Shown: positions 17,578 to 63,344, counted from the first letter of the stretch. The stretch: 64,000 nt of DNA from an uncultured Candidatus Saccharibacteria bacterium (GCA_964636285.1 CAZWQF010000001.1:7048-71047); one strand, 5' to 3'. Made by a program: numbers and translations. The notes: generated from the letters alone by a model not told the origin.

Positions 17578-17628
17578 ATACTATAAGTTATATGAAAAAA
17601 AGTGTTGCGTGATTCTATAAAAAAAGAA

Positions 17629-17687
17629 ACGGGCCCTCTTTGATCCAAACATGTGAGCTGAGACAGACATGATCAAAGGGGGCCCGT
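17629..17687 (-). terminator. large GC-stem hairpin (acgggccctctttgatc...gatcaaagggggcccgt) of the 'aaacgggc' family followed by T-tract on minus strand
   Basis: Inverted repeat read directly; RC ends ...gggcccgtttcttttttt. Confidence 0.6.
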
Positions 17688-17689
17688 AG

Positions 17690-18340: not shown

Positions 18341-18370
18341 TACAATCCATGTTGCTATAATATACTTGCT

Positions 18371-18862
18371 ATGAAGAAGTTTCTAAAAACCGAATATCTA
18401 GCTTTCATGACTCCTATTATTGCCGCACTTATTTTTGGCTACTTTTTTGGGCATCCTCCCGTTAAGGGAAACTTATATTATGTAAAAAGAGTTGTTGACG
18501 GCGACACTATAGAACTCGCAACAGGCGCTACAGTAAGACTTATTGGTATTAACACTCCAGAGACTGTAAAACCCAATTCACCTGTAGAGTGTTTTGGCCC
18601 AGAGTCTTCAGAATTTAGTAAAAAACTAATGCAGAGAAAATACGTCAGGCTTGAATCTGATAAGGACAACATGGATCAGTATGGAAGAATTCTCAGGTAT
18701 GTTTATTTGGATGATCAAATGGTGAATATGGAACTTGTTCGTGAAGGGTTCGCAAAAGCTTACTACTTTTCACCAAATAATAAATACAAAACAGAGTTTG
18801 ACCTTGCACAGACAGAAGCACAGTCAACAGACAAAGGTCTTTGGGGAAAGTGTACTAAATAG
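18371..18862 (+). CDS. thermonuclease (staphylococcal nuclease/SNase family), membrane-anchored/secreted
   Basis: RLIGINTPE...ECFGPE...YGRILRYVY...ELVREGFA typical SNase residues; N-terminal TM. Confidence 0.85.
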   Translation: MKKFLKTEYLAFMTPIIAALIFGYFFGHPPVKGNLYYVKRVVDGDTIELATGATVRLIGINTPETVKPNSPVECFGPESSEFSKKLMQRKYVRLESDKDNMDQYGRILRYVYLDDQMVNMELVREGFAKAYYFSPNNKYKTEFDLAQTEAQSTDKGLWGKCTK

Positions 18863-46164: not shown

Positions 46165-47292
46165 ATGAAATTTACCTGTCTCCAGGAAAATCTTGTCCGT
46201 GGGCTTTCTATTGTCAGCAAAGCAGTTGCTACAAGAGGTTCGCTTCCTGTTTTGTCTAACGTCCTTATTTCCGCGGTCGACGGTAGAGTTAAGCTTTCTT
46301 CAACAAATCTAGAAACCTCAATAACAACATGGATAGGAGCCTCTGTAGAAGAGGAGGGTGAAATAACAGTCCCATCAAAAGTTTTTCACGAATACGTTTC
46401 AAACATCCCCCCTTCGACAATAACAATTGAAGGAAGCGGAACAAATTTAAAGATCTCAAGTGACAAAGTTTCTTCAAAATTTGTAGGAATTGATGCATCT
46501 GAGTTTCCAAATATTGCAGCAGATGCAGATGAGGTTCACTTAACAATTGATCCAAAAGTTTTTGGCGACGCTGTCCTTGAAACTGCATTTGCTTCGGCAG
46601 CAGATGAGACAAGGCCGGTATTAACAGGCGTATTGTTAATTGGAAACGATGAGGGGTTGTACCTAGTTGGTGTTGATGGGTTTAGGCTTGCAGAAAGATC
46701 TGTAGCTTCAGAGTCCGGAAAAATTAAAAAAGAGTTTTCCGCAATTATTCCTGCAAAGATTCTCTTGGAGGTTGCTAGGCTTACGGCTTCGTTGAAAGAA
46801 CCACTAGAGGTGTCAGTTAACAAAGACAACACTCTTGTAGTGTTTAAGTCCGGCGACGTGGTTATTTCATCAAGGGTTATTGATGGAGATTTCCCTGCAT
46901 ACAAAGGACTTATTCCACATGTTGATACAAGAAGCGTTAAAGTTAAAATGGCCTCAAAGGATTTGGCAAGCGCCCTTAAACTTGCGAATGTATTTGCAAA
47001 AGACTCCGTAACTGTTGTGAGATTTAAGATAAGTAGTGATGACTCCGCAGTTTATATCCTTTCATCAAATTCGGAAGTAGGGGAAAACAGCGCAAAAATT
47101 GATGCTGAAGTTTCAGGTGGGGATTTGGAAATTGCATTTAATTCAAAGTACATTCTTGACGTTCTAAGTAACGTAAAATCTGACGAATTTATTTTTGAGT
47201 GTTCAGATAAAATTGGTCCTGGAGTGCCAGGGGTTTTAAGACCTTCAACTAGAGATAATCACCTTTACCTTATAATGCCCATGCAGTATTAA
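46165..47292 (+). CDS. dnaN: DNA polymerase III beta sliding clamp
   Basis: 375 aa, MKF..LQENL start and three-domain clamp architecture. Confidence 0.85.
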   Translation: MKFTCLQENLVRGLSIVSKAVATRGSLPVLSNVLISAVDGRVKLSSTNLETSITTWIGASVEEEGEITVPSKVFHEYVSNIPPSTITIEGSGTNLKISSDKVSSKFVGIDASEFPNIAADADEVHLTIDPKVFGDAVLETAFASAADETRPVLTGVLLIGNDEGLYLVGVDGFRLAERSVASESGKIKKEFSAIIPAKILLEVARLTASLKEPLEVSVNKDNTLVVFKSGDVVISSRVIDGDFPAYKGLIPHVDTRSVKVKMASKDLASALKLANVFAKDSVTVVRFKISSDDSAVYILSSNSEVGENSAKIDAEVSGGDLEIAFNSKYILDVLSNVKSDEFIFECSDKIGPGVPGVLRPSTRDNHLYLIMPMQY

Positions 47293-49304
47293 AAAATTGA
47301 TGAGACCCCATCGTTTGGCGCTTTTGCAACATCAGGTGTTGCAGGAGTTTGCATTTGTGCGCTTGAGACAGGCCCTGCATTTGAAGTTTGTTCTGTTGCC
47401 ACTTGAACGGGGGCTTGTGGCGCTGGTTGAGACTTTGGAATGTTGATTATTGGTTTGTACACTGCTTTTCCTAAAGTTGGCGTTGGTTCCGCTAGCGTAC
47501 CTTTTTCTCTTAACTTCAGCACATCAGTTGGCTTTGTTGTCACCAGTTTGTATTCTTCGTCAGAGGCCTCAACTTTCATTGCAACGTGATTGCTTCCTGC
47601 AAAGAACAAGCCTTCTCCAATTCCTGCGGATAATAGAAGCCTTTTTTCTCCTTCGGAAAGATAGAATACTTCTGCAAGCTTATCTATTGCAGCAGGGTGC
47701 TGTTTAAGGAGTACTTGAATGGACGAGTTTGTAATAATTGCCGTTCCATATTCGCTTGATAAAAAGTCTCCAACGTCCTGTGTAATTGTTGTAAGGCCAA
47801 GGAAATACTTTCTACATCTTTTTGCAATTCCGTAAAGGAACGTTGCCGAGTCTTTGTTCTGCATTAAGTACCAAGCCTCATCTACAAGCAAAATTCTCTT
47901 TCTTAAATCTCTCTTAATTCTTGTCCAAACAAAGTCCAGAATAATGTAAATTGCGATTGGTCTCAAAACATCTTCAAGTGATTTTGTGGAAAATACTGTA
48001 AATCTGCTTTCAAGGTCAATGTTCGATCTCTGGTCAAAAATTCCAGCAAGTGAACCTTTAATATATCTTTCAAGTCTTGACGCTAGACCTTTTGCTTCTG
48101 GCTCTTCCATTCCCAAAAGCACTTTATAAAGGTCTTCCATAATTGGAGGTTCTTTCTCTTTTTGTGTGACAGGGTCTGTGGTAATTCCCTTGATTCTGTA
48201 CGTTTCTACTAAGGCCTTATCCAAAAGAGACTCTTCAACATTTGTCAGTGTCCCGTAAATAATTTTAAAAAGCGTGTGCAGTGAAAGTATTTTTTGCCCA
48301 AGTTCGTTTTCACCTTCTACTGCAATTCCTGAAAGATCAAACGGATTAATTCTTGATGGCGAAGAGGAAGAGAACGAAATGTAGTTTCCTCCAACAGCTT
48401 CTGAGAGCCTTCTATACTCTTCTTCTGGGTCAACCACAATTATTTGTGCTCCAAAAACAAGTGATCTTAACGCTTCAAGTTTTACAAAGAACGATTTTCC
48501 AGCTCCGGCTTTTGCAAACACCACCATATTTGCGTTTTCCATTGAGAACCTATCAAAAATAATGAGCGAGCCGTTGTGCATGTTAACCCCGTACATAATG
48601 CCTTCGTTCTGAGTTAAGTCTGACGAGGTGAAGGGGAAAGTTGTAGCAAGGCTTGTTGTATCCATGTTTCTTGTAATCAAAAGTTTGTCTAGGCACAGCG
48701 GAATTGTAGATTGAAAAGCCTGCTCCATTTGAAGCGATGCTACTTTTGAGATTAAAAGAAGTGCTCCAAGAGTGGACTCAACTTTTTTTGTAATGTTGTT
48801 AAGTTCTTCAAGGCTGTCCGCCGGAATTGTTATATAAAATGAAAACTGGAAGAACCTCTCAATTCCTTTAACAAGCTGTTCCTGAAGTGACTGAGCGTCT
48901 TCAAGGGCTGCTCTAACTGCTGGGTCTACAACTTTTCCTCTTTCGGAATCTGTTTTTACCGTTGCTTCCATTTCCGCAATTTTTCTTCTGAGATCATCGA
49001 GAATACCTTTAGATTGCACTGGGTAGCAAAACATTGAAATATCAAGCGTGTGGTCAAAGTTGATGAGGGGAGATAGCCAGTTAGCTCCTACAAATCTTGG
49101 ATACCCTGACACAAACAAAGTTCTATAATACGAGTTTCCAATCCTAATATGAGTGAAGTCCACCTCAATACCTGAGGGCGCAATAATGTCTTTAACCGAA
49201 ACCATGCCTTGCGCAATTGTCTGCGCAGCTTTTTCAGCAGACTTATTCTGTGCGCTTGTTGTTTTTGCTTTATCCGATTTATCAAAAAGTTTAAAAATAT
49301 CCAT
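47289..49304 (-). CDS. type IV secretion ATPase VirB4/TrbE/TraC family, ATPase portion (start probably MDIFKLF at 49304, not 49406)
   Basis: Walker A AKAGAGKSFF, Walker B LLVDEAW, VirB4-family blocks; P/Q-rich C-terminal tail. Confidence 0.8.
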   Translation of the reverse strand: MDIFKLFDKSDKAKTTSAQNKSAEKAAQTIAQGMVSVKDIIAPSGIEVDFTHIRIGNSYYRTLFVSGYPRFVGANWLSPLINFDHTLDISMFCYPVQSKGILDDLRRKIAEMEATVKTDSERGKVVDPAVRAALEDAQSLQEQLVKGIERFFQFSFYITIPADSLEELNNITKKVESTLGALLLISKVASLQMEQAFQSTIPLCLDKLLITRNMDTTSLATTFPFTSSDLTQNEGIMYGVNMHNGSLIIFDRFSMENANMVVFAKAGAGKSFFVKLEALRSLVFGAQIIVVDPEEEYRRLSEAVGGNYISFSSSSPSRINPFDLSGIAVEGENELGQKILSLHTLFKIIYGTLTNVEESLLDKALVETYRIKGITTDPVTQKEKEPPIMEDLYKVLLGMEEPEAKGLASRLERYIKGSLAGIFDQRSNIDLESRFTVFSTKSLEDVLRPIAIYIILDFVWTRIKRDLRKRILLVDEAWYLMQNKDSATFLYGIAKRCRKYFLGLTTITQDVGDFLSSEYGTAIITNSSIQVLLKQHPAAIDKLAEVFYLSEGEKRLLLSAGIGEGLFFAGSNHVAMKVEASDEEYKLVTTKPTDVLKLREKGTLAEPTPTLGKAVYKPIINIPKSQPAPQAPVQVATEQTSNAGPVSSAQMQTPATPDVAKAPNDGVSSIF

Positions 49305-49305
49305 A

Positions 49306-50007
49306 TTATTCCTCAATAATTGCGGGTTCCACAATTGGAACTCCATAATCTTCAATTCCTGTTCTAATTCTCTGGTCATGAAGTGAGATTGGGTTGTACA
49401 CGTCAAAGAATAGCTCTACAAGCTCCTGTGTGGTCAGCTGTTTAGCTTTTATATTTAATCTAGCAAAGTCTCTGACTATTGAATCCCTCTTTGGGTACAG
49501 CTCAGTTTCTGCTGTCTTGATCGAACTGGGTACATCCACTTTAACTCTCTTTACTTTATTTCCCGAAAGAGTTTTTAAAAAGTCCAATGGCCCTCCATTA
49601 GGTGCAGCCATGATCATACCTGTTCCTGAAGGAATTGCTACGTAAAAGCTTTTGTCTAAAACTTCGTTCTTTTTAATAAGCTCCTGAACAAATTTTCTGT
49701 AAGCCTCTGCTTGAACTCTAAGAAGGGGATCCCTGATTTTATTTTCGATTGCTTGAACTTTATCTATATAGCTTGAAATATCAAGTTTCTTGCTCCTCAC
49801 TACAATTTGGATTGGATAAGTAAGCGAATTTAGTAACGAAGAGTACGCAGCAATAATTGCATCTTGTTCTACTTCGGATAAAAGGTCAAAGTTTACAGCG
49901 TTTGTTTTAAGTACAAGAACACAAGCCCCAGTTTTAAGAACAACTAGGTCTCTTGAAACTGTCTCAATCTCTAAATGATCTTGTGTGCTTTGTATAACTG
50001 CTGACAT
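49306..50007 (-). CDS. VirB4 N-terminal-domain-like protein (probably split from the downstream ATPase)
   Basis: 233-aa soluble ORF ending 2 nt before the probable VirB4 start; resembles CagE/TrbE N-domain. Confidence 0.45.
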   Translation of the reverse strand: MSAVIQSTQDHLEIETVSRDLVVLKTGACVLVLKTNAVNFDLLSEVEQDAIIAAYSSLLNSLTYPIQIVVRSKKLDISSYIDKVQAIENKIRDPLLRVQAEAYRKFVQELIKKNEVLDKSFYVAIPSGTGMIMAAPNGGPLDFLKTLSGNKVKRVKVDVPSSIKTAETELYPKRDSIVRDFARLNIKAKQLTTQELVELFFDVYNPISLHDQRIRTGIEDYGVPIVEPAIIEE

Positions 50008-50013
50008 ATTTGA

Positions 50014-52170
50014 TTAAAGTTTACCAATAAACTCTACTGGTGGTAATACCTCTCCTTTCACTTCAACACTTGCGGGCTCAAAAGTTTGTGGTATGTCCTC
50101 ATTCGGTTTTGTAACCTCAATTTTATACCTGCCGTTAGTAACCGGCGTTGTGATGCAGAATTGCCCAAGTTTGTTTGTTTTGAGTGCTCTTACCACATCC
50201 TCTTTTGAGTCTTTAATTATAACAACTGCACCTTCAACTAGCTTACCTTCTTTATCTTTCACTATTCCGTTGATCAGATTTGGTTGATTTGCAAACGAAG
50301 GGGCTTGAGCAAAATTTGCCGGTTTAGCCTCTATTGGCGCCTCTTTTATTGGTGGCGGGACTACCGGTTTTAAAATTACGGGCTGTGGTGTTTGCTCAGG
50401 TGCCTTTACTGATGCTGGGTCTGGTGTTGTTTCTGGTAGGTTTAATGGTTCAATCACAATCCCCTGATTTTTTGGTGGTTCTGGTGCTTTTTGTATTGGC
50501 TGTGGGATATCATACGTTTGCTTTTGTGTTTGCACCGTCTGATAAAGCCTCTGTTGAAGCTCGTTTATTTTTTGTTGCAGAGCAGAGATTTGAGTGTCTG
50601 CAACTTTCTTTTCATTCTGAAGTCTTAATAGCTCCATCTCAAATTTTTGCTTGTCGGCGGCACTGGAGTCCTGCATTTTTCTTTTGAGCTCTTCGATTTC
50701 TTTTGATAAATTATCGTTTGAGCTTTTTAGCTGGTTTGCTGCAGATTGGACTTCTTTTTTTGTTGCTTCTGTTTGAGTTGGTGTTTGAGATTTTAGATCT
50801 AGTTTGGCTCCAAGCTTAGCTTGCTGTACTCCTGCCTCTTTTTTAATTCGGTCAATAAGACCCATTAAATCTTTAGTCTTTTTTTCAAGATCTGAGTCAA
50901 ACTTTTGCTCTTCATTGACAGTGTTTAGGACTCTTTCGCCTCGAATGGGGAGAACCAGTTCACCTTGCTCTGCTGTCAGGTGTGTGAACCGCCTACCCGT
51001 TAGTCTGTCCGGAGTGATTGAGTTGTATGGTGTGTAAGTAATCTTTGGTTTACGGACGTTATCATTCACTCTGAATGCATTTGAGACTGCCGTTGGGGTT
51101 AGCTGAGTTTGGGATTTGAATTCTGGTTTTGGAGATTCTTTTGGCAAAATCTGAGGTTTTAGTTCAGGCTTTGAGGTTGCGGTCTGCTGAATTTGAGCCT
51201 GCACCTGAGGCTGTGTCCTAATTGGTTGCTGAGTCTGTGCTTGGGCAGGGGTGGGTTGCGCACTTACAGGGCTTGGAGTAGGCACGCTACTTTGCGTTTG
51301 TGTTGTTGCGGTTGGCTTTGGCATTGCGGGCTCCTTGCTAGCCATAGGTGGTTGCGATTGGGTTTGCTCTGCCAACTTTGGTTTAGGCTCCTGTAATTGA
51401 GGTTTTATTTCAGGTTTAACTTGAGGCGCTGGAGTTTGTGCTGGTGTTGTCTCCATTGCGTTTTCCTCTATGCCTTGAGGCTTGTTTTCTTGAAAGTTTT
51501 TGTTTATGGAGGGCTCTGTTCGAATTGGAGGTAGGCTTGTATCTTGAGCTAATGGGGTTGATGCAACGGGGGTATCAATAACAGATGTTTGCTGAGACTG
51601 GAACGAATGGTAAGGCTTAAAAAGCGTTGCCTGTTTTGTTGAAGCTTGAGCCTGGGTTGTAGTTGTACCCTCAAACGAGTCCCTGACTTTTTGTATGTAT
51701 TCGGCTTCTCTTTGTTCCATTGGGTCAAGAATGTGGTCGGTGACTTCTCTTTCAAGGTATTGTTCCAGTTTTCTTCGGCTTGCTGTTGGGGCAACAGCAA
51801 GCATTTCGTTTTTCAATTGATTTGCATTTTGGTATAGAAAATAGCTTGGAGGCTCAACCTCTTTTTTCCAGATTCGCTGAGTGGGGGAGTAAATGGCCAA
51901 AAAAAAGTTAACTACCCAAATGTCCATGCTTCTGTCTTGAATTGGGAGAAAGGCTACGGCAAGAGCAAGGCCAGCTACGCAGAGGGCTAGAGGGATGGCG
52001 ATGAACTTTGGAAGGCCTGAGGCAAAGGTTCCAAAAGCAAAAACAGCGCCTAGGACAAGATAGGCAAACTGTCTCATGGTCAGCTCTCCAATGACTTTAA
52101 ATTCCACCTGCATTATATTCTGTGGAACTGCATGTTGTTTCACACCTAGTGATACTTCAGAAATGGGCAT
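50014..52170 (-). CDS. T4SS-associated membrane protein: VirB3-like 2-TM N-terminus + P/Q/T-rich linker + coiled coil + C-terminal carboxypeptidase-regulatory-like beta-sandwich
   Basis: N-terminal pair of TM helices immediately upstream of VirB4 (VirB3 position); long low-complexity; C-terminal GIVKDKEGKLVEGAVVIIKD...GRYKIEVTKP CarbopepD_reg-like motif. Confidence 0.5.
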   Translation of the reverse strand: MPISEVSLGVKQHAVPQNIMQVEFKVIGELTMRQFAYLVLGAVFAFGTFASGLPKFIAIPLALCVAGLALAVAFLPIQDRSMDIWVVNFFLAIYSPTQRIWKKEVEPPSYFLYQNANQLKNEMLAVAPTASRRKLEQYLEREVTDHILDPMEQREAEYIQKVRDSFEGTTTTQAQASTKQATLFKPYHSFQSQQTSVIDTPVASTPLAQDTSLPPIRTEPSINKNFQENKPQGIEENAMETTPAQTPAPQVKPEIKPQLQEPKPKLAEQTQSQPPMASKEPAMPKPTATTQTQSSVPTPSPVSAQPTPAQAQTQQPIRTQPQVQAQIQQTATSKPELKPQILPKESPKPEFKSQTQLTPTAVSNAFRVNDNVRKPKITYTPYNSITPDRLTGRRFTHLTAEQGELVLPIRGERVLNTVNEEQKFDSDLEKKTKDLMGLIDRIKKEAGVQQAKLGAKLDLKSQTPTQTEATKKEVQSAANQLKSSNDNLSKEIEELKRKMQDSSAADKQKFEMELLRLQNEKKVADTQISALQQKINELQQRLYQTVQTQKQTYDIPQPIQKAPEPPKNQGIVIEPLNLPETTPDPASVKAPEQTPQPVILKPVVPPPIKEAPIEAKPANFAQAPSFANQPNLINGIVKDKEGKLVEGAVVIIKDSKEDVVRALKTNKLGQFCITTPVTNGRYKIEVTKPNEDIPQTFEPASVEVKGEVLPPVEFIGKL

Positions 52171-53006: not shown

Positions 53007-54329
53007 TTATTTTTTCTTTGGCCCTTTTAATGCCTGATCAATCATTCCAGGTGCTTTTATTGCAAGACCGCCCATAATTAAAGTTATTGAAGGGCCTACA
53101 AAAGCTCTCATAGGTACGCTAACTAAGAGATTTGCTCCAGGGACCGTTGTACTTCCTGACCAGTCTGTACCTAAAGTTATTGCAGCTCCAAGCATTAAGC
53201 AGAAGAAAATTGACGCAAGGGCTAGTGATGATGAAAGTTGAGTAATAAACCAATCCTTTATTCTGCTTTCTTGGCCTGGTAGGGCTCCAATAGCAAAAAT
53301 GAGTGGTGCAAAAATGGTATACAGAACTATCTTGCACCAGTTAAATATAAAAACAAATAAAGAGATAATCAAAACTGCTAGGTAGACTATAACTGCAATA
53401 AGTAGAATAACTAGCCCCCCTAAGTCCGCCCAGATGCTGTTGTTTTCGCCAGCTTCCATTAAAGATCTAGTAAGAAATTCTGCATAACAGGTTGCATAGC
53501 TAGTGATATTTTGAATTGTGCTGGCACCAATCAAAGTTGGACATTGGGTTGATATGAACCCACCGCCACTAGTGAATGTATCCGGATTGATAGCATAAAG
53601 ACCTGCTTTTGTAGCAGGAATAATAAGCTGGGCAAACATGCTTCCTAATGGATATGAGAATGCAATTAGTACAGCACTAATTGCAATTCTTGGAACAGCC
53701 ATTTGTGCTGTCACTACAGTTTGAGCATCTATTTTTTGTCTTAAAACTATCATGATAGCTATGGCCATTACAAAAACCGCTAACATTCCATATGCAATGT
53801 TTCTAATCCCTCTCCATGCCCCCAGCACTGCTGCATACTGATTCAATGACCCTTCCTGAGCATATGCACTTCTAAAAACAATGGATTCCTCAGACGCGTT
53901 GTTAATAAAATACGCTAGATTTATGGGAGGAGGCGCCTCTGAAAAACCGTCAAAAGCTTGAGCAGTAAAGGCCATGAGGCTTCCATTTCTTCTGAGGTTC
54001 AGATTTGCCGATTCGGATCCTAAATGGAGCATTCTCAAAGAGCAAGAATCCCTATTCAAGAAGATTACATCAATTAACGCGTCGCTAGTGCAACCTATCA
54101 GGCCATATAATGGGGCATCAATACCCATTGCTGTGATCATTGACATTGTAGTGGACCTGATTGAAGTTTCCTCCTCAAAGAATTCTGAGATTCCCCTAAA
54201 TACATTTGTTGAAATTGAAAATCCATTATCTGCATTGGCAACTCTATAAGTTCCAACTACAAAAGTTATTACCGCAAGAAAAATAATCAAATATTTAATG
54301 TTTTTAAGTGTTTTTGCTTTACCTAACAT
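53007..54329 (-). CDS. VirB6/TrbL-like polytopic membrane protein
   Basis: 440 aa, signal/TM N-terminus, >=6 TM helices, position in T4SS-like cluster. Confidence 0.5.
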   Translation of the reverse strand: MLGKAKTLKNIKYLIIFLAVITFVVGTYRVANADNGFSISTNVFRGISEFFEEETSIRSTTMSMITAMGIDAPLYGLIGCTSDALIDVIFLNRDSCSLRMLHLGSESANLNLRRNGSLMAFTAQAFDGFSEAPPPINLAYFINNASEESIVFRSAYAQEGSLNQYAAVLGAWRGIRNIAYGMLAVFVMAIAIMIVLRQKIDAQTVVTAQMAVPRIAISAVLIAFSYPLGSMFAQLIIPATKAGLYAINPDTFTSGGGFISTQCPTLIGASTIQNITSYATCYAEFLTRSLMEAGENNSIWADLGGLVILLIAVIVYLAVLIISLFVFIFNWCKIVLYTIFAPLIFAIGALPGQESRIKDWFITQLSSSLALASIFFCLMLGAAITLGTDWSGSTTVPGANLLVSVPMRAFVGPSITLIMGGLAIKAPGMIDQALKGPKKK

Positions 54330-54412: not shown

Positions 54413-57400
54413 ATGGCACCAATATTTAAAGCGGGGTATTACCCTGGAGATAAGCCAATAAGAAAAAACCCCATCCAGCCTGTTGAAAACCTAGACCCTT
54501 TTATGGAAGCAGCTATTAATGCTATTTCATTCGATCGGGATGCATTAGGGCTTCCTAATCGAATGGCAACTCTTCTTGAAAAGGACTATAGAAATGGGTT
54601 TGCCATTAGGTATGGTATCAGGGATCAGAATTATGTAGATGACAATATTAACAGAAGCATTAACGCAGGGCTTGCTGGAAGCGACCTTTCAATTGAGGAG
54701 GAATATAATGAGCTTCCAGGCGTTAGAGGGGCAAAGATTAACTTAGATCCAGAAACTATTGCAAAAGTTGGAGCTGGCGGTGTTGTCTCAAATACATTTA
54801 AAAGCATGCTTGATGCAGGATTTGCATTCAAGGACTTTTCGCTCAAGGCAGAGCTATATGGATTATGGGATCCGCTCTTAAACCCAGGAGTCTCATCCGA
54901 TTCTGTTCGGGCTGGTATGAGCCTGTCCTCTAGTGATTACATAAAAAGGTATCAGCCTGGAGTGACAGGTAAAATTTTGACACAACGTGATTTTTCAAAT
55001 GTAGATTCCCTAAATTCATCAATACGAGCGTATGTGCTCTCAAGCGGATCGGCCGTGGAGGAGCAGGCGTCTTTTACACAGGTAAAATATTTTTATTTTC
55101 AGTCTTTTAGGCAGGCATTTGAAAATAGTCCAGAAATTGCAAATATTGATGCCGATATTTTAACTTCAGATGCAAAATCTAGGCAATACGTTACTGATAT
55201 TTCAACTCTTACATCAACACTAGCAACAACGTCCGATCCTGCTACAAGGGCTGTATTATCACAACAGCTTGTACAAGCACAGGCTAATTTGGCAGGAGAG
55301 CAGTCAAAAGCGGCTAATTTACAATCTCTGAAGGCAGAGGCTGATGATTTAAAGCAGCTCTTTAGTGGAGTTAGAACTCCTGAAGACTTAGTCAAAGACG
55401 CAAGGAAACAGAATCCAAAGGCTGGATTTAATATAAAAAAACTAAGGGCTAACGAGAGAAGGTTGATGGATAACTTTTGGAAGGCTTCGGTTCATGGAAA
55501 AAATACCTCCATTACAAGAATGGCTGGAATCATGGGAGATAGGCGGCTTATTGCATGGAGCAGACTTATAGATTATAGAGAACGCGTTTCGGAAACCAGT
55601 GAGGTTATAGATGCAATTGCAAAAGGTGAGTTTTTTCAGCAATTTATTTGGAAAAAGTATGTCCTAAAAAGATTACCTTGGATAACACCAACATACGCAT
55701 TCTCAAAATTTTTTACAAACCCGGGAGACTTCTTTTGGAGAGCCTTTGTTAATGGGAAAATACCGTTGCCATTTACTGAGGCAACACTTCCTTTTTTTAA
55801 AATTCCATTTGTAACAGGGTTGTTTAATAGGTTTGGTGCGCTCGCTGACAGGCTTGTTGGGTGGGTGTCAGATCTTATAGTTAAAAGATTTGCTAAGGTA
55901 ATCAATTTGTTTGGTGGCAATGTTATTAAATCAGCTTTTAGTAAGATAAGTGGTTGGTTATATGGTGTTGGGGCAGGTTCTGGGGTTGGTTTACCCGCGG
56001 TTGTTGTTGCGGCTATAACCCAATATTTAGGAGAAAAAATTTTTGGTTTATTTAAATCCATATTTGATGGCGACTTTTTTGAGTACTTGGAGAAGCTTCA
56101 AGCAGAGGCTGCCCGGTTGGTCAGATTTTTATTTGGAGTAGTGCTACTGCTCATCAGTTCTTGCCTAGTCTTTGTTACAATTGCTACTTCAATCCTATTC
56201 CTTCCTTTTTCAGGAATGATGGTTCAGGACTATGGGTCAGGAGGAGGGGTAGAAGAGACTGACGTTGATTGTCCATTCGTAGATGAAAGCGAGCTTCCAA
56301 GAGATGCTAATGGCGTGAGACTTGATAATGTTAAGCCTCTTGAAGATATGATAAACGCATTAACAAATACATATGCTAATCCTAAGAGATCTCCCATGGG
56401 TGTAGGTACAGCTAACGAAGACAATATAAGGAAATGCTATGGCTACATTATTGCAAGGGCACTGCAGACGGCGAATGATCCTGCTATTGCTTTGGCTATT
56501 TGGATTGAAGAGACGGGTGCAAGCAATTATGAAGTTTATAACTTCCCCATTGATGATTTTGGATGCGGTAGGCCCATAGAATCCAATAACTTTATGGATC
56601 AACTTGAATGTTTCTTAAGATTACAAACTGCATATGCTACAAAACCAAGCCATGCAGAGTGTAGAGCTACAGAACCTTCAAATACCGAGCTTATTGTGCA
56701 TGAGTGGGGGCAGATATTTGCTTGTGGTGATTTAGCGTGTAGAGAGGGTAGGGCATATGATTTTTCTTGCTTGGCTGTGTGCGGTACCAATAAGACAGCC
56801 CCAGAATGTATAGACGGCACGTTGTGGTTTGATAATGTAAACACAATTTATTCGGCTGTATCAATTGGGGACAAAACTTTGGATTTAGATTGTATTTTAA
56901 CGGGCTCTACAATAAGATGGGATGACACTTGTAAACAGGGCTCAAGAATTAATGTTGATATACGAGGGGTGACAGGATTACTTGGACAAAACCTGCCTAA
57001 CTTTTTTAGGCGAATAGGGTATAAGGAAGTAATTTCTGATTATGATGACTACATTATACAGTGCTACGAAACCAGAGTAACTTATAACACAGGTTGTCCT
57101 CTTGCCTCCGGTAATTATCTGCATTGTGGTTTGGATTTAGTTGGAGATACTGTGGATGGAATTTATTCGGTGGAGGGTAAGGATGTTCGATCTCCATATC
57201 GTGGGACTGCCGTAGTGGATACTGTAGGTTATGATGCCGCAGGGTATGGAAATTATGTTGTCCTTGAGATTTCTGGTGATGGGGGAGATGATGACTCCAA
57301 TGAGGACTTCTTATATATTTTAGTTGGGCATTTAATAGATGGTTCTATAGGGGTATCCGTTGGAGAGCAGGTGGCATATAATGATTTTATCGGTCGAGTA

Positions 57401-57565
57401 GGGTCTACAGGTCACTCTACAGGGCCTCATGTGCATTATGAGATCAGATCAGGGGGAAGGTCTGCTGCTTATCAAGTTAATCCCTGTTACGTGGTGGCCT
57501 TCAGTGGGGAGTCCTGTCCTGGGACGACATTTGGCTCAAGTTGCTCGACTGCAATGTTAGAATAA
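54413..57565 (+). CDS. 1050-aa T4SS-associated cell-wall hydrolase: central lysozyme-like region + C-terminal M23 (LytM) metallopeptidase
   Basis: C-terminal HxxxD...HSTGPHVHYEIR M23 motifs; central ...AIALAIWIEETGASNYEV... glycosidase-like block; internal TM segment. Confidence 0.65.
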   Translation: MAPIFKAGYYPGDKPIRKNPIQPVENLDPFMEAAINAISFDRDALGLPNRMATLLEKDYRNGFAIRYGIRDQNYVDDNINRSINAGLAGSDLSIEEEYNELPGVRGAKINLDPETIAKVGAGGVVSNTFKSMLDAGFAFKDFSLKAELYGLWDPLLNPGVSSDSVRAGMSLSSSDYIKRYQPGVTGKILTQRDFSNVDSLNSSIRAYVLSSGSAVEEQASFTQVKYFYFQSFRQAFENSPEIANIDADILTSDAKSRQYVTDISTLTSTLATTSDPATRAVLSQQLVQAQANLAGEQSKAANLQSLKAEADDLKQLFSGVRTPEDLVKDARKQNPKAGFNIKKLRANERRLMDNFWKASVHGKNTSITRMAGIMGDRRLIAWSRLIDYRERVSETSEVIDAIAKGEFFQQFIWKKYVLKRLPWITPTYAFSKFFTNPGDFFWRAFVNGKIPLPFTEATLPFFKIPFVTGLFNRFGALADRLVGWVSDLIVKRFAKVINLFGGNVIKSAFSKISGWLYGVGAGSGVGLPAVVVAAITQYLGEKIFGLFKSIFDGDFFEYLEKLQAEAARLVRFLFGVVLLLISSCLVFVTIATSILFLPFSGMMVQDYGSGGGVEETDVDCPFVDESELPRDANGVRLDNVKPLEDMINALTNTYANPKRSPMGVGTANEDNIRKCYGYIIARALQTANDPAIALAIWIEETGASNYEVYNFPIDDFGCGRPIESNNFMDQLECFLRLQTAYATKPSHAECRATEPSNTELIVHEWGQIFACGDLACREGRAYDFSCLAVCGTNKTAPECIDGTLWFDNVNTIYSAVSIGDKTLDLDCILTGSTIRWDDTCKQGSRINVDIRGVTGLLGQNLPNFFRRIGYKEVISDYDDYIIQCYETRVTYNTGCPLASGNYLHCGLDLVGDTVDGIYSVEGKDVRSPYRGTAVVDTVGYDAAGYGNYVVLEISGDGGDDDSNEDFLYILVGHLIDGSIGVSVGEQVAYNDFIGRVGSTGHSTGPHVHYEIRSGGRSAAYQVNPCYVVAFSGESCPGTTFGSSCSTAMLE

Positions 57566-58506
57566 TGAACTTTATGAATTTTATGGATCAAACAAGAGTA
57601 CTTTTAGGTGATCTGTTAGGTACAAAAAAAGTATTCATACTTATATTCATCTTAATCCTGTCAGTAGCTGTAATTTCTGCATTTAGGTACACATCTTATA
57701 TTGAAAGAAAAGTGGTTGAAGACAGATCTCTTGAGATAGCATCTGCCCAGTTTTCGGAAGCATTGAAAAAAAAAGCCCCTCTTGGGTTAAAGGCTAAAAA
57801 TTTAGTAATAGGAGGAAATTTCACACAAGATCATATCCAAGAAATAAATAATGGTAGTTATGTCATGAAGTACTCCTTAATGGATCCAACTAAAATGGCA
57901 GGCGTGCTTAAGTTGAGGCATGTCTCTTCAAGTAATGTTTTTTTTCTTGCAGAGGGTAGCGGGTCACTGGAGGATTTTAGGTCGGATTATGAAGCTTATC
58001 TTAATTCAGCTGTAGGATCAGATGCAAAAAATGTTAAGTTTGAAGTGAAAGATACCTCTGTTCCTGGTATTAAGATTTATGAGGAGCGGAATGTTTTTGA
58101 GCTTAAAGAGTATACCTTACATGTTAATGGGTCTCCTGTTTATCAACTAGACTATGTTAATCATATTACGGTATACAGAGAGTCAGAAGGCTCAGAAATC
58201 TTTTATGTTAAAATGCCTCCTTTCTTTCCTCAGCCTAATGTTGAGCTGATTAAAAAAGATTTTGTTTCCGGAGTATATAACATGCAGCCGTTTATTCCTT
58301 TGGACCCTTCTCTTAGTAGCTATATTTACAGGGAGCTTCCAAAATTCTCAGTTAGGGATTTTAAAATTATTGATACATCTGCAAGTAGAGCCTTCTTTTT
58401 TGATAATTCTTTAGGTTATATGCTTCCTGTTTTAACAAAAGAGGTGATTTATTTAAGATCTGAGGATGTTAAAAATCCAAACTATTTATTTGTGTACTTT
58501 GATTAA
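57541..58506 (+). CDS. hypothetical bitopic membrane protein (VirB8-like topology)
   Basis: N-terminal TM + ~270-aa extracytoplasmic domain, T4SS locus context. Confidence 0.35.
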   Translation: MLDCNVRIMNFMNFMDQTRVLLGDLLGTKKVFILIFILILSVAVISAFRYTSYIERKVVEDRSLEIASAQFSEALKKKAPLGLKAKNLVIGGNFTQDHIQEINNGSYVMKYSLMDPTKMAGVLKLRHVSSSNVFFLAEGSGSLEDFRSDYEAYLNSAVGSDAKNVKFEVKDTSVPGIKIYEERNVFELKEYTLHVNGSPVYQLDYVNHITVYRESEGSEIFYVKMPPFFPQPNVELIKKDFVSGVYNMQPFIPLDPSLSSYIYRELPKFSVRDFKIIDTSASRAFFFDNSLGYMLPVLTKEVIYLRSEDVKNPNYLFVYFD

Positions 58507-58508: not shown

Positions 58509-60542
58509 CTATTCTTTAGGGGTTTCAATTGGAAACGACGATAGTCTAGATATACATTCTTTAGCTGCAGTGACCGTTCCAAGACCCTCGACACCATATG
58601 GCGTCGGTACGTCTGAGTTTCGAATGTTCGCTTTTGTAGTTGTAGTACCTATACCCCCTATACTTTGTAATGGAGTTATTGGGCTGGAAAGAGAGTCGCA
58701 AAGTACTCCACTCACAGCTCCAAGCTCCTTAGCTCTTGGAAGTTTAACATTTGCCATAGAATTGAATGCTTTTTGTGTACTACATCCTGGCGCTTGCGGA
58801 TCGCTTTGGCAGTTAATAATATCAATAAATTGAGAAAATGATGCAGTAAAACCTCCTTCAAGACATCTTCCGTCTGAGTCTTTTCCTCCTGTGCACTCAC
58901 ATTCCTGTCCAAAAAGATGCACATTATAAACATTACCTTTTGGCTTTTGTTTTGTTTGTACCTCACTGTCTGGCGTAGTGACAGTTGAAGCAATTTTGGT
59001 CATATTTGTGATTGTTGATACAGGTGAAAAGGAGCCTCCTCTCAGATTAACACTAGTAATATGTCTATACTCATCAATTCCCGAACCTGGGGAGCACCCA
59101 TATCCTGAGCAGCTTCCGTTGGGATCCACACCTTCTCCTGCTATACTTGGGGTTAGTTCAGCTCTGTCGGGATCAATATCTTTAAGTCTATAGTACGGAA
59201 AAAATTCTGGTTCAAATGAGGTTTCATTAAACTCAAAGCTAAGTTCTTGTTGTGCAATATACATTGGAGGTCTAAAGTTTCTAGCAGATACTTTAGCTCC
59301 ACTATTGTCATAACAAATGTCAGGATTCTCAGAATATAGTTGTAGTACTTGCTTTTTTAGTTCTTCTGGATTTGAAGTTTTGATTAATCCTCCTCCGCAA
59401 GCTCCCTGATTCATCCCACGGAATCTAGCGTTGATGTCTCTTATATCGTCACATGAAGGAGCAAGACCATCTTTTGTGAAAGCAGATGGGTCGCATCCAA
59501 GAGCTGTGCTTGTACCTTCAACAAAAGCAGCTCTGTCGGTTGTTAAATCATCAGGGGTGACTGTGGCACCAGATACGTATGCTACAAGCGCTTGAGCGCA
59601 CATAGCTGGGTTTCTTAAACAAGAAAAGCCTGCATTAAGTATTGGGATTGCATTTCTCCAGAGGTAATCCACTGGGGTCTTATCAAGCTGGTTTATCTGA
59701 TTTTCACATGTATTTTCATAATCGGTTTTATCTACCAGTTGTCTCATACATACATCGTTTTCTTCACAGAAGCACTGTTCGTTTGTACACCTTGTAGCCC
59801 CACTTATATATATCGGAGGGATAGTGACGTCCTTTGTTATTACTCCAGTTTCATCCTGCCACACAATTCCTTTTAATACTTTAATTTCCTTACCACAAAA
59901 AACCCCTATAAACAGGGGTTCTTCAGGTAAATCTGAAATCTTGTACTCACCGCGAGGGCTTTTATTTCCCGTGGATAATGTAGAGTTGCTTTCGGTATAT
60001 GTGTATCTTCTGGTAGCCTTGTATTTCCCAGACTTATTGGCAAGATAGGGATCTTCTATCCAGGCAATCGTAGCACCTATGAGCGGTTTGATTTTTCGCT
60101 TAGCAAGAGGTATCGAGGATTCTTCCTGGGTTGCTATTTCTCCCTCATCAATTGCGTATATTTCTCCTAGTACAGAATGTTCTCCTCTTTTTGAAGGTCT
60201 CCTTTGACATGTTGATTTGTGCTTGGCCAAATCACACGGTGCCCCCTCTTCATCACAATCTGGATGGTTGTTGTCCTCATTATCACAAGTTGATGGGTCG
60301 TCTTGGATAGTCTGACATCTACCAATGTCCCCTCCATTTTCAGCTACGCATCCTCTATGACATGCACCGTTTGCTCTGTTTTCGCAAACAGGTGCGGTGC
60401 TAGAACAATTTTGAGCATACACATTATCCTGACTGTTACATGCAAAAAACAAGTTCATCAAAATAAATATTGAGAGTGTTGTTAATCTGTGCATGAATTT
60501 TTTCATACTGTGTTTAAAATTATTGAGTGAATGGGTCTCCAT
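58509..60542 (-). CDS. large secreted Cys-rich protein (677 aa), putative adhesin/ectodomain
   Basis: Signal peptide, >40 Cys in CxxC/CxC spacing, no TM elsewhere. Confidence 0.5.
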   Translation of the reverse strand: METHSLNNFKHSMKKFMHRLTTLSIFILMNLFFACNSQDNVYAQNCSSTAPVCENRANGACHRGCVAENGGDIGRCQTIQDDPSTCDNEDNNHPDCDEEGAPCDLAKHKSTCQRRPSKRGEHSVLGEIYAIDEGEIATQEESSIPLAKRKIKPLIGATIAWIEDPYLANKSGKYKATRRYTYTESNSTLSTGNKSPRGEYKISDLPEEPLFIGVFCGKEIKVLKGIVWQDETGVITKDVTIPPIYISGATRCTNEQCFCEENDVCMRQLVDKTDYENTCENQINQLDKTPVDYLWRNAIPILNAGFSCLRNPAMCAQALVAYVSGATVTPDDLTTDRAAFVEGTSTALGCDPSAFTKDGLAPSCDDIRDINARFRGMNQGACGGGLIKTSNPEELKKQVLQLYSENPDICYDNSGAKVSARNFRPPMYIAQQELSFEFNETSFEPEFFPYYRLKDIDPDRAELTPSIAGEGVDPNGSCSGYGCSPGSGIDEYRHITSVNLRGGSFSPVSTITNMTKIASTVTTPDSEVQTKQKPKGNVYNVHLFGQECECTGGKDSDGRCLEGGFTASFSQFIDIINCQSDPQAPGCSTQKAFNSMANVKLPRAKELGAVSGVLCDSLSSPITPLQSIGGIGTTTTKANIRNSDVPTPYGVEGLGTVTAAKECISRLSSFPIETPKE

Positions 60543-60981
60543 GCAAATCTAGAAAATCTGAAATTGATTGCAACGTTTCTTCTAATCCGGCTACGCTAGA
60601 ACCTCCAATAAAAATTCTAATAAGAATATTAATCAAACTGACTGCTCCTAAAACTGCTACAAATCCTATCAATCCCCATGTTAAGCTCTTTTTTGCCGCC
60701 TCGATTGCTTTAGAATCTCCTTCTGACAGCGAGTATTTTATGGATCCATAGAGAGTTATTATTATAAATGCAAATCCTACTGCCCCGAGGAGGTAGTTAA
60801 TGCCCGTAGTAATAGGACATGCTAGCTCACTTAAAGCTGGTGGGTCCGAAACGGTGCAATTGAATTGAGCATAAGCTTTGTCTGGAAAAAGGCAGAGAAA
60901 CCCAAATAATATTAATGTTAAGCTTAAATATTTTTGGCTAAACAAAGAAAAAAAATTTCTAATTTTAAATTGAGCTACCAT
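60520..60981 (-). CDS. VirB2/TrbC-like pilin paralog 1 (signal peptide + two hydrophobic helices)
   Basis: Conserved GSIKYSLSEGDSKAIEAAK loop between two TM helices, shared with four downstream paralogs. Confidence 0.55.
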   Translation of the reverse strand: MVAQFKIRNFFSLFSQKYLSLTLILFGFLCLFPDKAYAQFNCTVSDPPALSELACPITTGINYLLGAVGFAFIIITLYGSIKYSLSEGDSKAIEAAKKSLTWGLIGFVAVLGAVSLINILIRIFIGGSSVAGLEETLQSISDFLDLHGDPFTQ

Positions 60982-61264
60982 AATCAGTACCTCCTAACAT
61001 CCTTACTATAATCGCCCTTAATGAAACTGCAACCAAGGCTATAAATAGTGCAGTTATTGCAGCAGTAAGGTAGGACTTTGCCCCTGCGATTGCTTTAGAA
61101 TCCCCCTCTGACATTACATACTTGATACCAGAAATTATAGATGCAATTAAGGCTGCTGCTAAAGCTATTCCAATTAGCACATTCGTCACGATACCCAGTA
61201 CTCTTGAAACAGAAAAATTATATTCCCCAAAAGGACCCTCGACCTGGTTTAAAATCTCGCTCAC
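60965..61264 (-). CDS. VirB2/TrbC-like pilin paralog 2
   Basis: SGIKYVMSEGDSKAIAGAK motif between two TM helices. Confidence 0.55.
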   Translation of the reverse strand: MSEILNQVEGPFGEYNFSVSRVLGIVTNVLIGIALAAALIASIISGIKYVMSEGDSKAIAGAKSYLTAAITALFIALVAVSLRAIIVRMLGGTDYGSSI

Positions 61265-61292
61265 GTGAAGATTCTACTACAACTATTATTTT

Positions 61293-62588
61293 CTAGCTAC
61301 CTAAGAAAGTTGTAACTACCCACTTAAGGAAGCTAATACCTAAAATTGCCATTACAACGCCTGCAGCTGCTGCAGTAAGCTCCTCATGCCCTAATTGTAT
61401 TTTTTGTGGGTCTCCTTCACTCATTAACATGTGATATCCGCCCATTATTGCTTGGTATGCCGCTATTATGACGACTAATGCCCCTACCGCCGTTGCAACG
61501 TAGTTAATTAAACCCGCTGGGTCCATTGCTACCGGAAAGTTGGGAGATGGCGGTGGGTTCTTAATAAGCTCAATTTCCTCCTGCATCCCTTGGCATATTG
61601 CACTGCATGATCCCAGGTTATTGTGAATACAGGCTGTATCAGTGCTTCCTGGAGCACATTCAGAGCAACCACTACCTAGAACGCACTTATATAGTTTAGT
61701 CTCACTAGCTGTAGAAACACATAGCCCATCATCTCCACTCGCATTGATTTGATCGCAATCGCCTCTATTTCCTGCTCCGCTGTCGCATGTTTCATTAGGT
61801 CCGCAATCTACGGGGCTTGAGCAGTTACAGGAGGTTGAAGCTCCAGAAGGGTTTTGACATGTATAGTTACTAGTATTGTTATTTGTAGGCCTGCACAAAA
61901 AGTTTGCACTTGCAGACTGGCAACAGCCTAAATTTCTTAAAGCCCCTGGAGCACTTCTACCGCAAACTTGTCCTGGTGCAATACAGGTTACCTCTGCAAC
62001 GCACCTATTTTGTGTTACATCACATGTGAAGCCGGAGGCACATTGGCTTGATCCAGGGCTGTTACATTCCACACAAGTGCTTATTGTTTCGCCTGGATTT
62101 TTACAGTGTCTGCCTGAGGGATTACTTTGACAATCCTGATCTCCTCTACAGATAACACATTCTGCGGTGTCCACATTACAGATATTTCTAGTTTGATTTT
62201 GACATTGGGAATCATTAGAGCATCCTATAGCCTCACAATTACTGCTACTGGTCCCTTTTTGCTTACAATAGGGGGTACTCCCTGGACAATCATTATTATC
62301 TCTGCAAGCTACACAAATACCGCCTTGACCATTACAAACTGGAAAGCCTTGATTTCCCATACTTGCGCTTGTATCTGCAACATAGCAAATTTTATTTTTT
62401 ACATTACTGTTACAAGAGGAAGGTTGAGCGACACACGTATAAGATCCGCTTGCGGTTACTAATCCCATTCCACACTCACCGTTCACAGCATAAGCTGGTT
62501 TTTGAAGAGTGCTAATAATCCCAATAACTATCAATAAGACTAAAGTAACATTGTTTAGTTTTGAGATTACACTAAGTACCTTCTGCAT
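61293..62588 (-). CDS. Cys-rich ectodomain fused to C-terminal VirB2/TrbC-like pilin module (431 aa)
   Basis: Signal peptide, ~330 aa with ~50 Cys, then ...AYQAIMGGYHMLMSEGDPQKIQLGHEELTAAAAGVVMAILGISF pilin-like hairpin. Confidence 0.55.
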   Translation of the reverse strand: MQKVLSVISKLNNVTLVLLIVIGIISTLQKPAYAVNGECGMGLVTASGSYTCVAQPSSCNSNVKNKICYVADTSASMGNQGFPVCNGQGGICVACRDNNDCPGSTPYCKQKGTSSSNCEAIGCSNDSQCQNQTRNICNVDTAECVICRGDQDCQSNPSGRHCKNPGETISTCVECNSPGSSQCASGFTCDVTQNRCVAEVTCIAPGQVCGRSAPGALRNLGCCQSASANFLCRPTNNNTSNYTCQNPSGASTSCNCSSPVDCGPNETCDSGAGNRGDCDQINASGDDGLCVSTASETKLYKCVLGSGCSECAPGSTDTACIHNNLGSCSAICQGMQEEIELIKNPPPSPNFPVAMDPAGLINYVATAVGALVVIIAAYQAIMGGYHMLMSEGDPQKIQLGHEELTAAAAGVVMAILGISFLKWVVTTFLGS

Positions 62589-62590
62589 AG

Positions 62591-62908
62591 TTATATACCC
62601 ACGGTTGTCCTTGCACTATCAATGTTTCCTCCTAAGGCACTAACAATTATAGATCGGATTGACATTGCAGCTATGACTATGACAAAACCTATAATCGCAT
62701 TGGTGAGCCACTCTCTTGCAACCATCGTGTTTGCTTTATCCCCTTGGCTCATGATGTATTTAATACCACCAAGAATTAAATAAATAATTGTAAGTGCAAT
62801 TCCTGAGCCGAGTGCAATATTGTACACTACTCCAAAAATTGAACTTAAACTTGTAAATCTATTGTTGAGAGGGTCAACAATATTTGAATCTACTTGTGCA
62901 TATACCAT
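62591..62908 (-). CDS. VirB2/TrbC-like pilin paralog 4
   Basis: LGGIKYIMSQGDKANTMVAREWLTNAIIGF; no in-frame upstream start (in-frame TAA 8 codons upstream). Confidence 0.55.
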   Translation of the reverse strand: MVYAQVDSNIVDPLNNRFTSLSSIFGVVYNIALGSGIALTIIYLILGGIKYIMSQGDKANTMVAREWLTNAIIGFVIVIAAMSIRSIIVSALGGNIDSARTTVGI

Positions 62909-63020
62909 ACTTTTATTATAACCACCTTTTTATTTCTGTAAACTCGAATTACACTCGTATCTATTAAAACCAAAACAGGGCGGTTGTCCGCCCTGTACAT
63001 TGGAAAGAAATCAGTTTTTA

Positions 63021-63344
63021 TTAAGCGGGTGTTACTCCACTCACTGCAGTGTTGGATGCGCCTAGAAGATTTCCTACGATTGATCTAATCACGAATGCTC
63101 CAAGGACTACAATAAAACCAATGATTGCGTTTGTGAGCCATTCTCTTGCTACTTGAGTATTAGCTTTATCCCCTTGGCTCATGATGTATTTAATACCACC
63201 AAGAATTAAATAAATAATTGTAAGTGCAATACCAACACCCAGCACTACATTCATTATCATACCAAATAGATTTGGTAGGTTGGTTAATGTTGAACCTTCT
63301 AATGGATTTGTTGGGGTTACATCTACATTTTGTGCGAATACCAT
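63021..63344 (-). CDS. VirB2/TrbC-like pilin paralog 5 (recent tandem duplicate of 62591-62908)
   Basis: 64-bp identical DNA block (62737-62800 = 63167-63230) and near-identical protein core. Confidence 0.55.
   Translation of the reverse strand: MVFAQNVDVTPTNPLEGSTLTNLPNLFGMIMNVVLGVGIALTIIYLILGGIKYIMSQGDKANTQVAREWLTNAIIGFIVVLGAFVIRSIVGNLLGASNTAVSGVTPA

Follow-up and report, generated by a model that had tools for sequence, protein, structure and literature searches.

Does a large gene within a type IV secretion system (T4SS) cluster of an uncultured Candidatus Saccharibacteria bacterium serve to open the producer's own cell wall, or is it directed at the wall of a partner cell? The question is raised by a stretch of 64,000 nucleotides (nt) of DNA (GCA_964636285.1, CAZWQF010000001.1:7048-71047), referred to here as the window, in which an open reading frame (ORF) at 54413..57565 on the plus strand, with an ATG start, encodes a protein of 1050 amino acids (aa). 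A sequence-only reading had described this protein as a bifunctional enzyme with a lysozyme-like block and an M23 peptidase, encoded next to VirB6, and had suggested that it could degrade a partner cell's peptidoglycan rather than only the producer's. The protein is a membrane-anchored enzyme with two predicted cell-wall-cutting domains, and its gene is a conserved part of the T4SS cluster of a Patescibacteria-type ultrasmall bacterium; we assign a probability of about 0.6 to the reading that it serves this T4SS as a dedicated subunit for remodelling the producer's wall. Proteins of this type are already known and no new kind of system is revealed; the new parts are modest and consist of a lysozyme-fold family, its insertion into a T4SS core protein, and a set of defined residues.

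Domain content of the 1050-aa protein

The exact coordinates and length of the ORF were confirmed by the ORF list and by translation. The start codon is confirmed by nine homologues, which align with the protein from M1 onward and have the N-terminal motif MxPxFxxGYYPG in common. Public data contain one record of the identical 1050-aa protein, carried by an NCBI contig of 148 kb and a Logan contig of 10 kb. Word-indexed homology searches with the full protein and with its central region retrieved a single relative besides the protein itself, and a scan of GTDB genomes with the whole protein yielded as its sole match an unrelated M23 protein from Spirochaetia.

At the C-terminal end lies a zinc metallopeptidase domain of the M23 (LytM/lysostaphin) type, aa ~895-1027 (57095..57493, +), which was recognised through Pfam, PHROG and PDB chains. 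Pfam Peptidase_M23 (PF01551) matched aa 920-1017 with 44.4 bits against a cut-off of 28.7 (E=1.9e-11), and PHROG peptidase families matched aa 901-1027, the HxxxD region included. The motif residues are H904-C-G-L-D908 (HxxxD, nt 57122-57136), H973 (57329-57331) and H1006-V-H1008 (HxH, 57428-57436), with H1001 also among them; HCGLD (904-908) and HVH (1006-1008) are found within GSTGHSTGPHVHYEIR. The M23 chains 6smk, 9gy1 and LytM (2b44/1qwy) of the PDB align over the GHx and GSTGxSTGPHxH segments, such that H973 in 'GHL' falls on 'GHM' of 6smk and H1006-V-H1008 on 'PHVHF' of LytM; the LytM segment GSTGNSTAPHVHFQ is one example of a PDB alignment over the motif. The motifs are also kept in the homologues P0003, P0005, P0006, P0007, P0009 and P0013. 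With HxxxD, H and HxH intact, a Pfam score above the gathering threshold and homologues that keep the motifs, the C-terminal M23 motifs noticed in the sequence-only reading are borne out. Judged by sequence, the domain keeps all of its catalytic residues, and cleavage of peptide cross-links is its predicted function. A Cys-containing tail follows the domain and extends to aa 1050.

Between the membrane anchor described below and the M23 domain is a Cys-rich domain, aa ~635-842 (56315..56938, +), with the motif DPAxxxAIWxEE[ST]GASNY...DFGC...nFxxQLxCFL. When a structure model of this domain was compared with known folds, the first 40 matches all belonged to the lysozyme superfamily. In the model, helix 66-77 (aa 690-701) ends C-terminally with the pair E700-T701, at the usual site of a catalytic Glu-Ser, and E700 (codon at nt 56510-56512) is our proposed catalytic Glu. 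In weak hhalign registers E700 falls on the 'ES' Glu of P0019, whose SLT domain is bona fide, and on the 'TES' of an insert in P0005, and a further weak alignment places it on the Glu of 'HETG' in the GH73 domain 8yxk. The model thus predicts a lysozyme fold with a plausible catalytic Glu for the central domain, in agreement with the lysozyme-like block proposed there earlier.

The conservation of this residue was measured across relatives of the domain. An exhaustive HMMER search with aa 1-905 against 1.84 billion representatives found 106 relatives, ~95 of which share only aa ~635-842, and the domain is 150-200 aa long and Cys-rich across them; the family comprises about 100 representative clusters at 50% identity. 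Conservation was counted in an alignment of 67 sequences of the domain (A1). W697 and G717 are invariant in this alignment, [ST]701 is present in 67/67 and E700 in 66/67, followed by C750 (65/67), D715 (63/67) and C776 (62/67). The partner modules of the domain in 10 tested proteins were M23 in six, VanY in two and SLT in one, a co-occurrence that fits a role as a wall-hydrolase module. By domain content the protein is therefore bifunctional as had been claimed: its M23 domain is complete in catalytic residues, and its lysozyme-fold domain has a conserved Glu.

The family to which this domain belongs is uncatalogued, since no Pfam, NCBIfam or PDB-sequence search matches it significantly. For aa 610-905 there was no Pfam match even at E<=10, and NCBIfam matches to the protein were confined to the M23 region. 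Searches of PDB sequences by phmmer and with the A1 profile gave nothing significant; the only meaningful weak match of the profile was to the GH73 glucosaminidase domain of the C. difficile endolysin 8yxk (E=1.9), on '...AISIHETGNG'. A scan of the 67 members of A1 against Pfam assigned no family, with only 2/67 touching Glucosaminidase (PF01832) at E=0.05. Muramidase, lytic transglycosylase and glucosaminidase are accordingly all candidate specificities.

Many exported, Cys-rich proteins of giant size (800-1900 aa), among them P0010, P0011, P0020 and P0026-P0029, carry the same domain as their C-terminal module. These proteins share other conserved unannotated blocks, such as '...FPHxGGxxEYFLxGIQxALRP...', and some carry VanY or M23. 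Together they appear to form a large family of wall-active, multi-domain proteins of the cell surface that has so far gone without annotation. As a family outside Pfam and NCBIfam that occurs on giant exported proteins with M23, VanY and SLT, the domain is useful for the annotation of 'dark matter' proteomes.

The remainder of the protein, and more than half of its length, is an N-terminal domain (aa 1-571; 54413..56125, +) that is Cys-free, all-helical, and probably cytoplasmic rather than enzymatic. Its conserved motifs are MxPxFxxGYYPG, EYxELPGAxG and IAEGxIF. It is followed by a transmembrane (TM) helix at aa 572-600 (FLFGVVLLLISSCLVFVTIATSILFLPFS; 56126..56212, +) with a mean hydropathy of 2.79, so that the internal TM segment noticed earlier is real; its position is conserved in homologues. 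Three K/R residues precede the helix, and the 20 residues that follow it contain no K/R and five D/E. Cys residues number 0 in aa 1-571 and 18 in aa 601-1050. The charge flanks and Cys distribution, together with the precedent of PrgK of Enterococcus faecalis (below), point to a probable N-in/C-out topology, in which the N-terminal domain lies in the cytoplasm and the catalytic domains, rich in disulfides, lie outside the cell.

The T4SS cluster and its conservation

The window is chromosomal and carries genes for dCTP deaminase, thyX, SHMT, Suf, DnaG, RpoD and MetRS, and then rnpA-yidC-jag-dnaN. A T4SS cluster directly follows dnaN, and the gene for the 1050-aa protein lies within it, between a VirB6-like gene and a pilin array and 5 kb from VirB4. 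The T4SS association proposed for the gene is upheld by VirB4 itself, a 705-aa ATPase of the CD1110 class (47289-49406, -; NCBIfam NF045971, 396.8 bits vs a cut-off of 325; Pfam P-loop_TraG), by PrgI and an array of T4SS_pilin genes nearby, and by conserved synteny. Among the window ORFs scanned, neither a coupling protein nor a relaxase was detected. From these profile matches, the T4SS is assigned to the chromosomal, monoderm (VirB4 CD1110/MPF-FATA-like) type. Its layout is like that of published Patescibacteria T4SS clusters, which are MPF-FATA-related and have VirB2-like pilin arrays, and it resembles them also in the lack of a coupling protein or relaxase among the scanned ORFs (PMC12102498; PMC10633639). 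The position beside dnaN is likewise that of SEML1_0006-0019 in Ca. Southlakia epibionticum (PMC10633639).

Immediately upstream and divergently transcribed is the gene for a 440-aa polytopic membrane protein (53007..54329, -) with 6-7 hydrophobic segments, a VirB6/PrgH-like candidate. Its sole profile match, to the NCBIfam CD3337/EF1877 mobilome membrane family, is sub-threshold (17.5 bits vs a cut-off of 120, E=0.0014), and there was no Pfam match at E<=1. The sequence-only reading had called this neighbour VirB6; the polytopic membrane protein in a conserved position stands, and that position supports a T4SS role, but the name falls short of its profile threshold. On the downstream side, the start of a gene for a 313-aa bitopic protein (57565..58506, +; TM helix at aa 22-40), which is also a gene call in L001, overlaps the stop of the 1050-aa ORF by 1 nt (TAATG), and the two genes are thus probably co-translated. 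Pfam and PHROG scans gave no family match for the 313-aa protein. Judged by its length, topology and location, it is a candidate for the missing VirB8-like (TraM/TcpC-type) subunit.

The related loci L003-L009, seven in all, were compared by tblastn with the window proteins; a short conserved block of the N-terminal domain retrieves such loci, whereas the full N-terminal alignment contains no usable conserved stretch. In 7/7 loci a VirB6-like gene (-) is directly upstream of the homologue of the 1050-aa gene (+), and in 6/7 a homologue of the 313-aa gene is next to it; L007 has a 290-aa gene in the same place. Across the three long loci (L005, L008 and L009) the order yidC-jag-dnaN-VirB4-TraCN-PrgI-VirB6L-target-313aa-677aa-pilins is collinear, where target denotes the gene for the 1050-aa protein. 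Identity to the window proteins is 75-80% for VirB4, ~60% for dnaN, 29-39% for the VirB6-like protein and 21-32% for the 313-aa protein; for the 1050-aa protein it is 24-29% in the N-terminal domain and 36-44% in the M23 domain.

The N-terminal domain, TM helix and M23 domain are kept in 7/7 of these loci, and the lysozyme-fold domain is present in 0/7; in most orthologues M23 begins ~70 aa after the TM helix. Because it is absent from all seven orthologues, the lysozyme-fold module is read as a lineage-specific insertion between the TM helix and M23, and the sequences point to the N-terminal domain, TM helix and M23 as a conserved ancestral core. In the L008 orthologue (9740-12577, +; the full-length form of P0005), a different, Cys-rich insert of 290 aa containing NPWLLVGIWGTESWFSQ lies between the TM helix and M23. 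This insert had no Pfam match; it shows a weak hhalign match to the lysozyme-fold domain (E=0.005) and a motif-level resemblance to the 'ES' lysozyme motif. It may represent a second, independent insertion of a glycosidase module. In L005, where the orthologue has no glycosidase module, a 637-aa SpoIID-domain protein is encoded directly after the pilin array (16747-18660, +), and it possibly supplies glycan cleavage in trans; the equivalent position falls beyond the end of the window. A conserved core with an inserted glycosidase offers a natural experiment on how wall-opening function is partitioned.

Producer wall or partner wall

The closest characterised analogue is PrgK of the Enterococcus faecalis plasmid pCF10, a wall-opening T4SS subunit essential for conjugation, which has 871 aa, an intracellular N-terminal domain, a TM helix at 254-274, and extracellular LytM, muramidase ('SLT') and CHAP domains (PMC11323569). 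By this analogy the 1050-aa protein would work like PrgK without being a member of the PrgK family. Both belong to a monoderm-type T4SS cluster and are large (871 vs 1050 aa), with an N-terminal domain that is intracellular in PrgK and predicted to be so here, a TM helix, and M23/LytM and lysozyme-superfamily domains beyond it. They differ in domain order, as the lysozyme-fold domain precedes M23 here while PrgK has LytM, muramidase and CHAP in that order, and no CHAP domain was matched in the 1050-aa protein by Pfam or NCBIfam. The M23 site keeps HxxxD and HxH here, whereas the LytM domain of PrgK is degenerate and metal-free. The glycosidase is of an uncatalogued family, whereas that of PrgK resembles phage-tail lysozyme, and the N-terminal domains (about 570 vs about 250 aa) have no detected sequence similarity. 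Unlike the PrgK system, the T4SS described here also has a VirB2-like pilin array.

The second comparison is with Southlakia epibionticum, in which the 1113-aa SEML1_0007, with a C-terminal DD-peptidase fold, and SEML1_0006 adjoin VirB4 and are essential in Tn-seq (PMC10633639; PMC12102498). SEML1_0006 has two lysozyme-like domains and a Cys proteinase domain, and the whole-chain structural neighbours listed for SEML1_0007 include a Patescibacteria protein with an M23 domain (PMC10633639). Shared features are a chromosomal T4SS cluster by dnaN, a large peptidase protein near VirB4 (>1100 aa in Southlakia) and a lysozyme-domain protein in the cluster. The peptidase in Southlakia has a Hedgehog/DD-peptidase (M15) fold rather than M23, the glycosidase domains (PF18013 and PF01832, with a Cys-proteinase domain) are on a separate protein rather than fused to the peptidase, and the gene position relative to VirB4 differs. 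It had been argued that the protein far exceeds the usual VirB1 role in size. This is true only in comparison with Gram-negative VirB1; T4SS hydrolases of monoderms are large, multidomain and membrane-anchored, and with PrgK at 871 aa and the Southlakia protein at 1113 aa, a length of 1050 aa is normal for them.

Other counterparts are the two-domain wall hydrolases of Firmicutes T4SSs, namely TraG of pIP501, CwlT of ICEBs1 and the Orf14/Orf17-type proteins of Tn916/CTn1. Their peptidase is a CHAP or NlpC/P60 domain of the cysteine type in place of M23, and these much smaller proteins (about 330-370 aa) lack a large N-terminal domain. VirB1 of Agrobacterium and other Gram-negative T4SSs, a GH23 lytic transglycosylase, has the role that is proposed here for the 1050-aa protein, local opening of peptidoglycan for T4SS assembly, and its glycan-cleaving module is likewise of the lysozyme-superfamily fold, but it is a small soluble periplasmic protein of one domain, without M23, TM anchor or N-terminal domain, and no profile relationship between the two was found. 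Among Pfam and NCBIfam models, the comparison being limited to these two collections, none for VirB1, TrsG, CD419 or PrgK matched the protein.

The domain content, the catalytic residues and the membership in a cluster with conserved linkage are established. Given these, we consider it reasonably likely, at the same level of probability as above, that the protein is a dedicated wall-remodelling subunit of a monoderm-type T4SS and the functional counterpart of VirB1, PrgK and TraG. We infer the topology, catalysis, docking and cooperation of the two domains as follows. The Cys-free, helical N-terminal part of ~570 residues would remain cytoplasmic and connect the protein with the inner-membrane platform of the T4SS, while the single TM helix (aa 572-600) would anchor it N-in/C-out, as the charge and Cys distribution and the PrgK precedent suggest. 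Outside the membrane, the lysozyme-fold domain, identified by its modelled fold, would cleave glycan strands with E700 as the general acid, and the extracellular M23 zinc endopeptidase, in which the catalytic residues are present, would cut peptide cross-links. Jointly the two activities could make a local opening in the peptidoglycan through which the channel, and the VirB2-like pilus encoded downstream, would pass. T4SS clusters of Patescibacteria are essential for epibiotic life and consist mostly of unannotated parts, and a concrete role, that of a membrane-anchored glycosidase and endopeptidase, is hereby proposed for a conserved unnamed core gene of one cluster family.

Several points weigh against this account. 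Support for the lysozyme fold comes from a predicted structure, and none of the sequence profiles picks up the domain. A Foldseek search of the PDB with the central-domain model found no significant match (best E=0.98), although the same families came out on top; the relationship to the lysozyme superfamily is accordingly distant. For the N-terminal domain no relative of known function was detected and the structure model is poor, which leaves T4SS docking a conjecture. A second, weaker hydrophobic stretch at aa 518-539 makes the topology less settled. Finally, the T4SSs of such bacteria have been proposed to act on host cells, and an account restricted to action 'in cis' may be too narrow.

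This last point leads to the main alternative, the one raised by the sequence-only reading, in which the protein is host-directed and acts in trans; the two roles need not be mutually exclusive. The ectodomain would be presented at, or released from, the contact between epibiont and host and would digest the partner wall, either to give the T4SS or pilus access or to release host material. Patescibacterial T4SS clusters have no recognisable coupling protein or relaxase, and in Southlakia the cluster is essential for epibiotic growth, the adjacent peptidase and lysozyme genes included (PMC10633639; PMC12102498), which is consistent with such a role. The occurrence of the lysozyme-fold domain at the C-terminus of many giant exported proteins with M23 or VanY is an effector-like distribution, and the ectodomain is Cys-rich and so probably disulfide-rich. 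The family also diverges faster (24-44% identity) than the adjacent VirB4 in the same loci; however, the predicted cytoplasmic N-terminal domain diverges as fast as the ectodomain, and the divergence can be explained without selection by a host. The TM anchor is firm and no cleavage signal was identified, no immunity-like gene with a recognisable signature was seen, and substrate specificity is not readable from sequence. Even when fully extended, the PrgK ectodomain reaches only to about the middle of the donor wall (PMC11323569). Both the membrane anchor and the example of PrgK speak for a local effect on the wall of the producer itself, and we consider host-directed action unlikely, although it is the most serious competitor.

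One form of this alternative deserves mention for what it would entail. An epibiont enzyme anchored at the base of the T4SS and projecting where the two cells touch might breach the host, with the fused lysozyme-fold and M23 domains cutting the host wall so that the pilus or channel gains access to the host membrane. We regard this as doubtful. If it were true, the lineage-specific swapping of glycosidases (the domain described here, the other insert of L008, and none in the remaining orthologues) would track the chemistry of host walls, and the 'WxEE[ST]GAS' lysozyme-fold domain would be a Patescibacteria-type module for attack on host walls. E700, H904/D908 and H1006/H1008 are residues at which it could be tested whether such enzymes act on the producer wall or the host wall.

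A housekeeping role, either as an autolysin or cell-division hydrolase like MepM/ShyA or as an EnvC/NlpD-type M23 protein that lies near T4SS genes by chance, has some initial appeal, as M23 proteins are common in division and elongation and the chromosomal locus adjoins replication-origin genes. Weak NCBIfam matches to MepM, ShyA and SpoIIQ models were in fact obtained, but at about 20 bits vs cut-offs of 341-700 and in the HxH motif region only. The catalytic residues are intact, unlike those of EnvC/NlpD-type regulators. Moreover, the gene is embedded in the cluster, with the VirB6-like gene on one side and the pilin array on the other; its position is the same in 7/7 loci, and its stop codon overlaps the start codon of the cluster gene that follows. 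A housekeeping role is thus highly improbable, and we rejected it on the conserved synteny with T4SS genes.

Tape-measure proteins of phages have a long helical region, a hydrophobic block and a C-terminal hydrolase, a layout similar to that seen here, and PHROG tape-measure and endolysin families match the M23 part, with phrog_167 (tape measure) also weakly matching aa 290-552 (E=1e-4); but since the strong PHROG matches are limited to the M23 domain (aa 893-1037), the phrog_167 match has no stretch that passes the threshold alone, the neighbours are T4SS and housekeeping genes with no phage genes nearby, and the T4SS synteny is conserved, a remnant tail tape-measure or ejection protein, co-opted or inactive, is scarcely credible, and phage origin was rejected on the M23-restricted matches and gene context, a present-day phage function being very unlikely.

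Other genes of the cluster and window

Next to VirB4 is a 233-aa VirB4-N/TraC-like ORF (49306-50007, -), which matches TrsD and the N-terminal part of the CD1110/Mbov_0397 VirB4 models. The split of VirB4 into two ORFs recurs in L005 (as a Pfam TraC-like gene), L008 and L009 and resembles SEML1_0009/0008 of Southlakia; this recurrence and resemblance indicate, at the level of sequence comparison, that the two-ORF VirB4 is genuinely characteristic of this T4SS type rather than the product of a frameshift. The adjacent gene (50014-52170, -) encodes a PrgI (VirB3-like) fusion protein, with Pfam PrgI at aa 15-88 and an extension of ~600 aa that comprises a Pro/Gln-rich region, a coiled coil with weak SMC-like matches, and a C-terminal beta-sandwich like CarboxypepD_reg/SdrD-B. 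The fusion is conserved in L005, L008 and L009.

Downstream of the 313-aa gene, a 677-aa gene and the pilin array span 58509..63344 (-). The former (58509-60542, -) encodes a Cys-rich exported protein that is conserved in L005, L008 and L009. T4SS_pilin (PF18895) genes are located at 60520-60981, 62591-62908 and 63021-63344 (all -), and weaker matches to the same Pfam family were found at 60965-61264 and 61293-62588 (both -). The last of these ORFs encodes a very Cys-rich exported protein of 431 aa with its weak PF18895 match at aa 359-416, and from its sequence it may be a pilin with a large N-terminal head resembling a Cys knot. Neither the 677-aa nor the 431-aa protein had any other family match. 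A scan for promoters and terminators around the gene for the 1050-aa protein found nothing beyond chance.

At the other end of the window, where no rRNA or tRNA was detected in positions 1-4000, is a complete group I catalytic intron (2734-2957, -; Rfam RF00028, 103.6 bits) with no recognisable host gene. It lies near a thyX-like gene, between an ORF of 157 aa (2171-2644, -) with no significant family and the dCTP deaminase gene (3928-4506, +).

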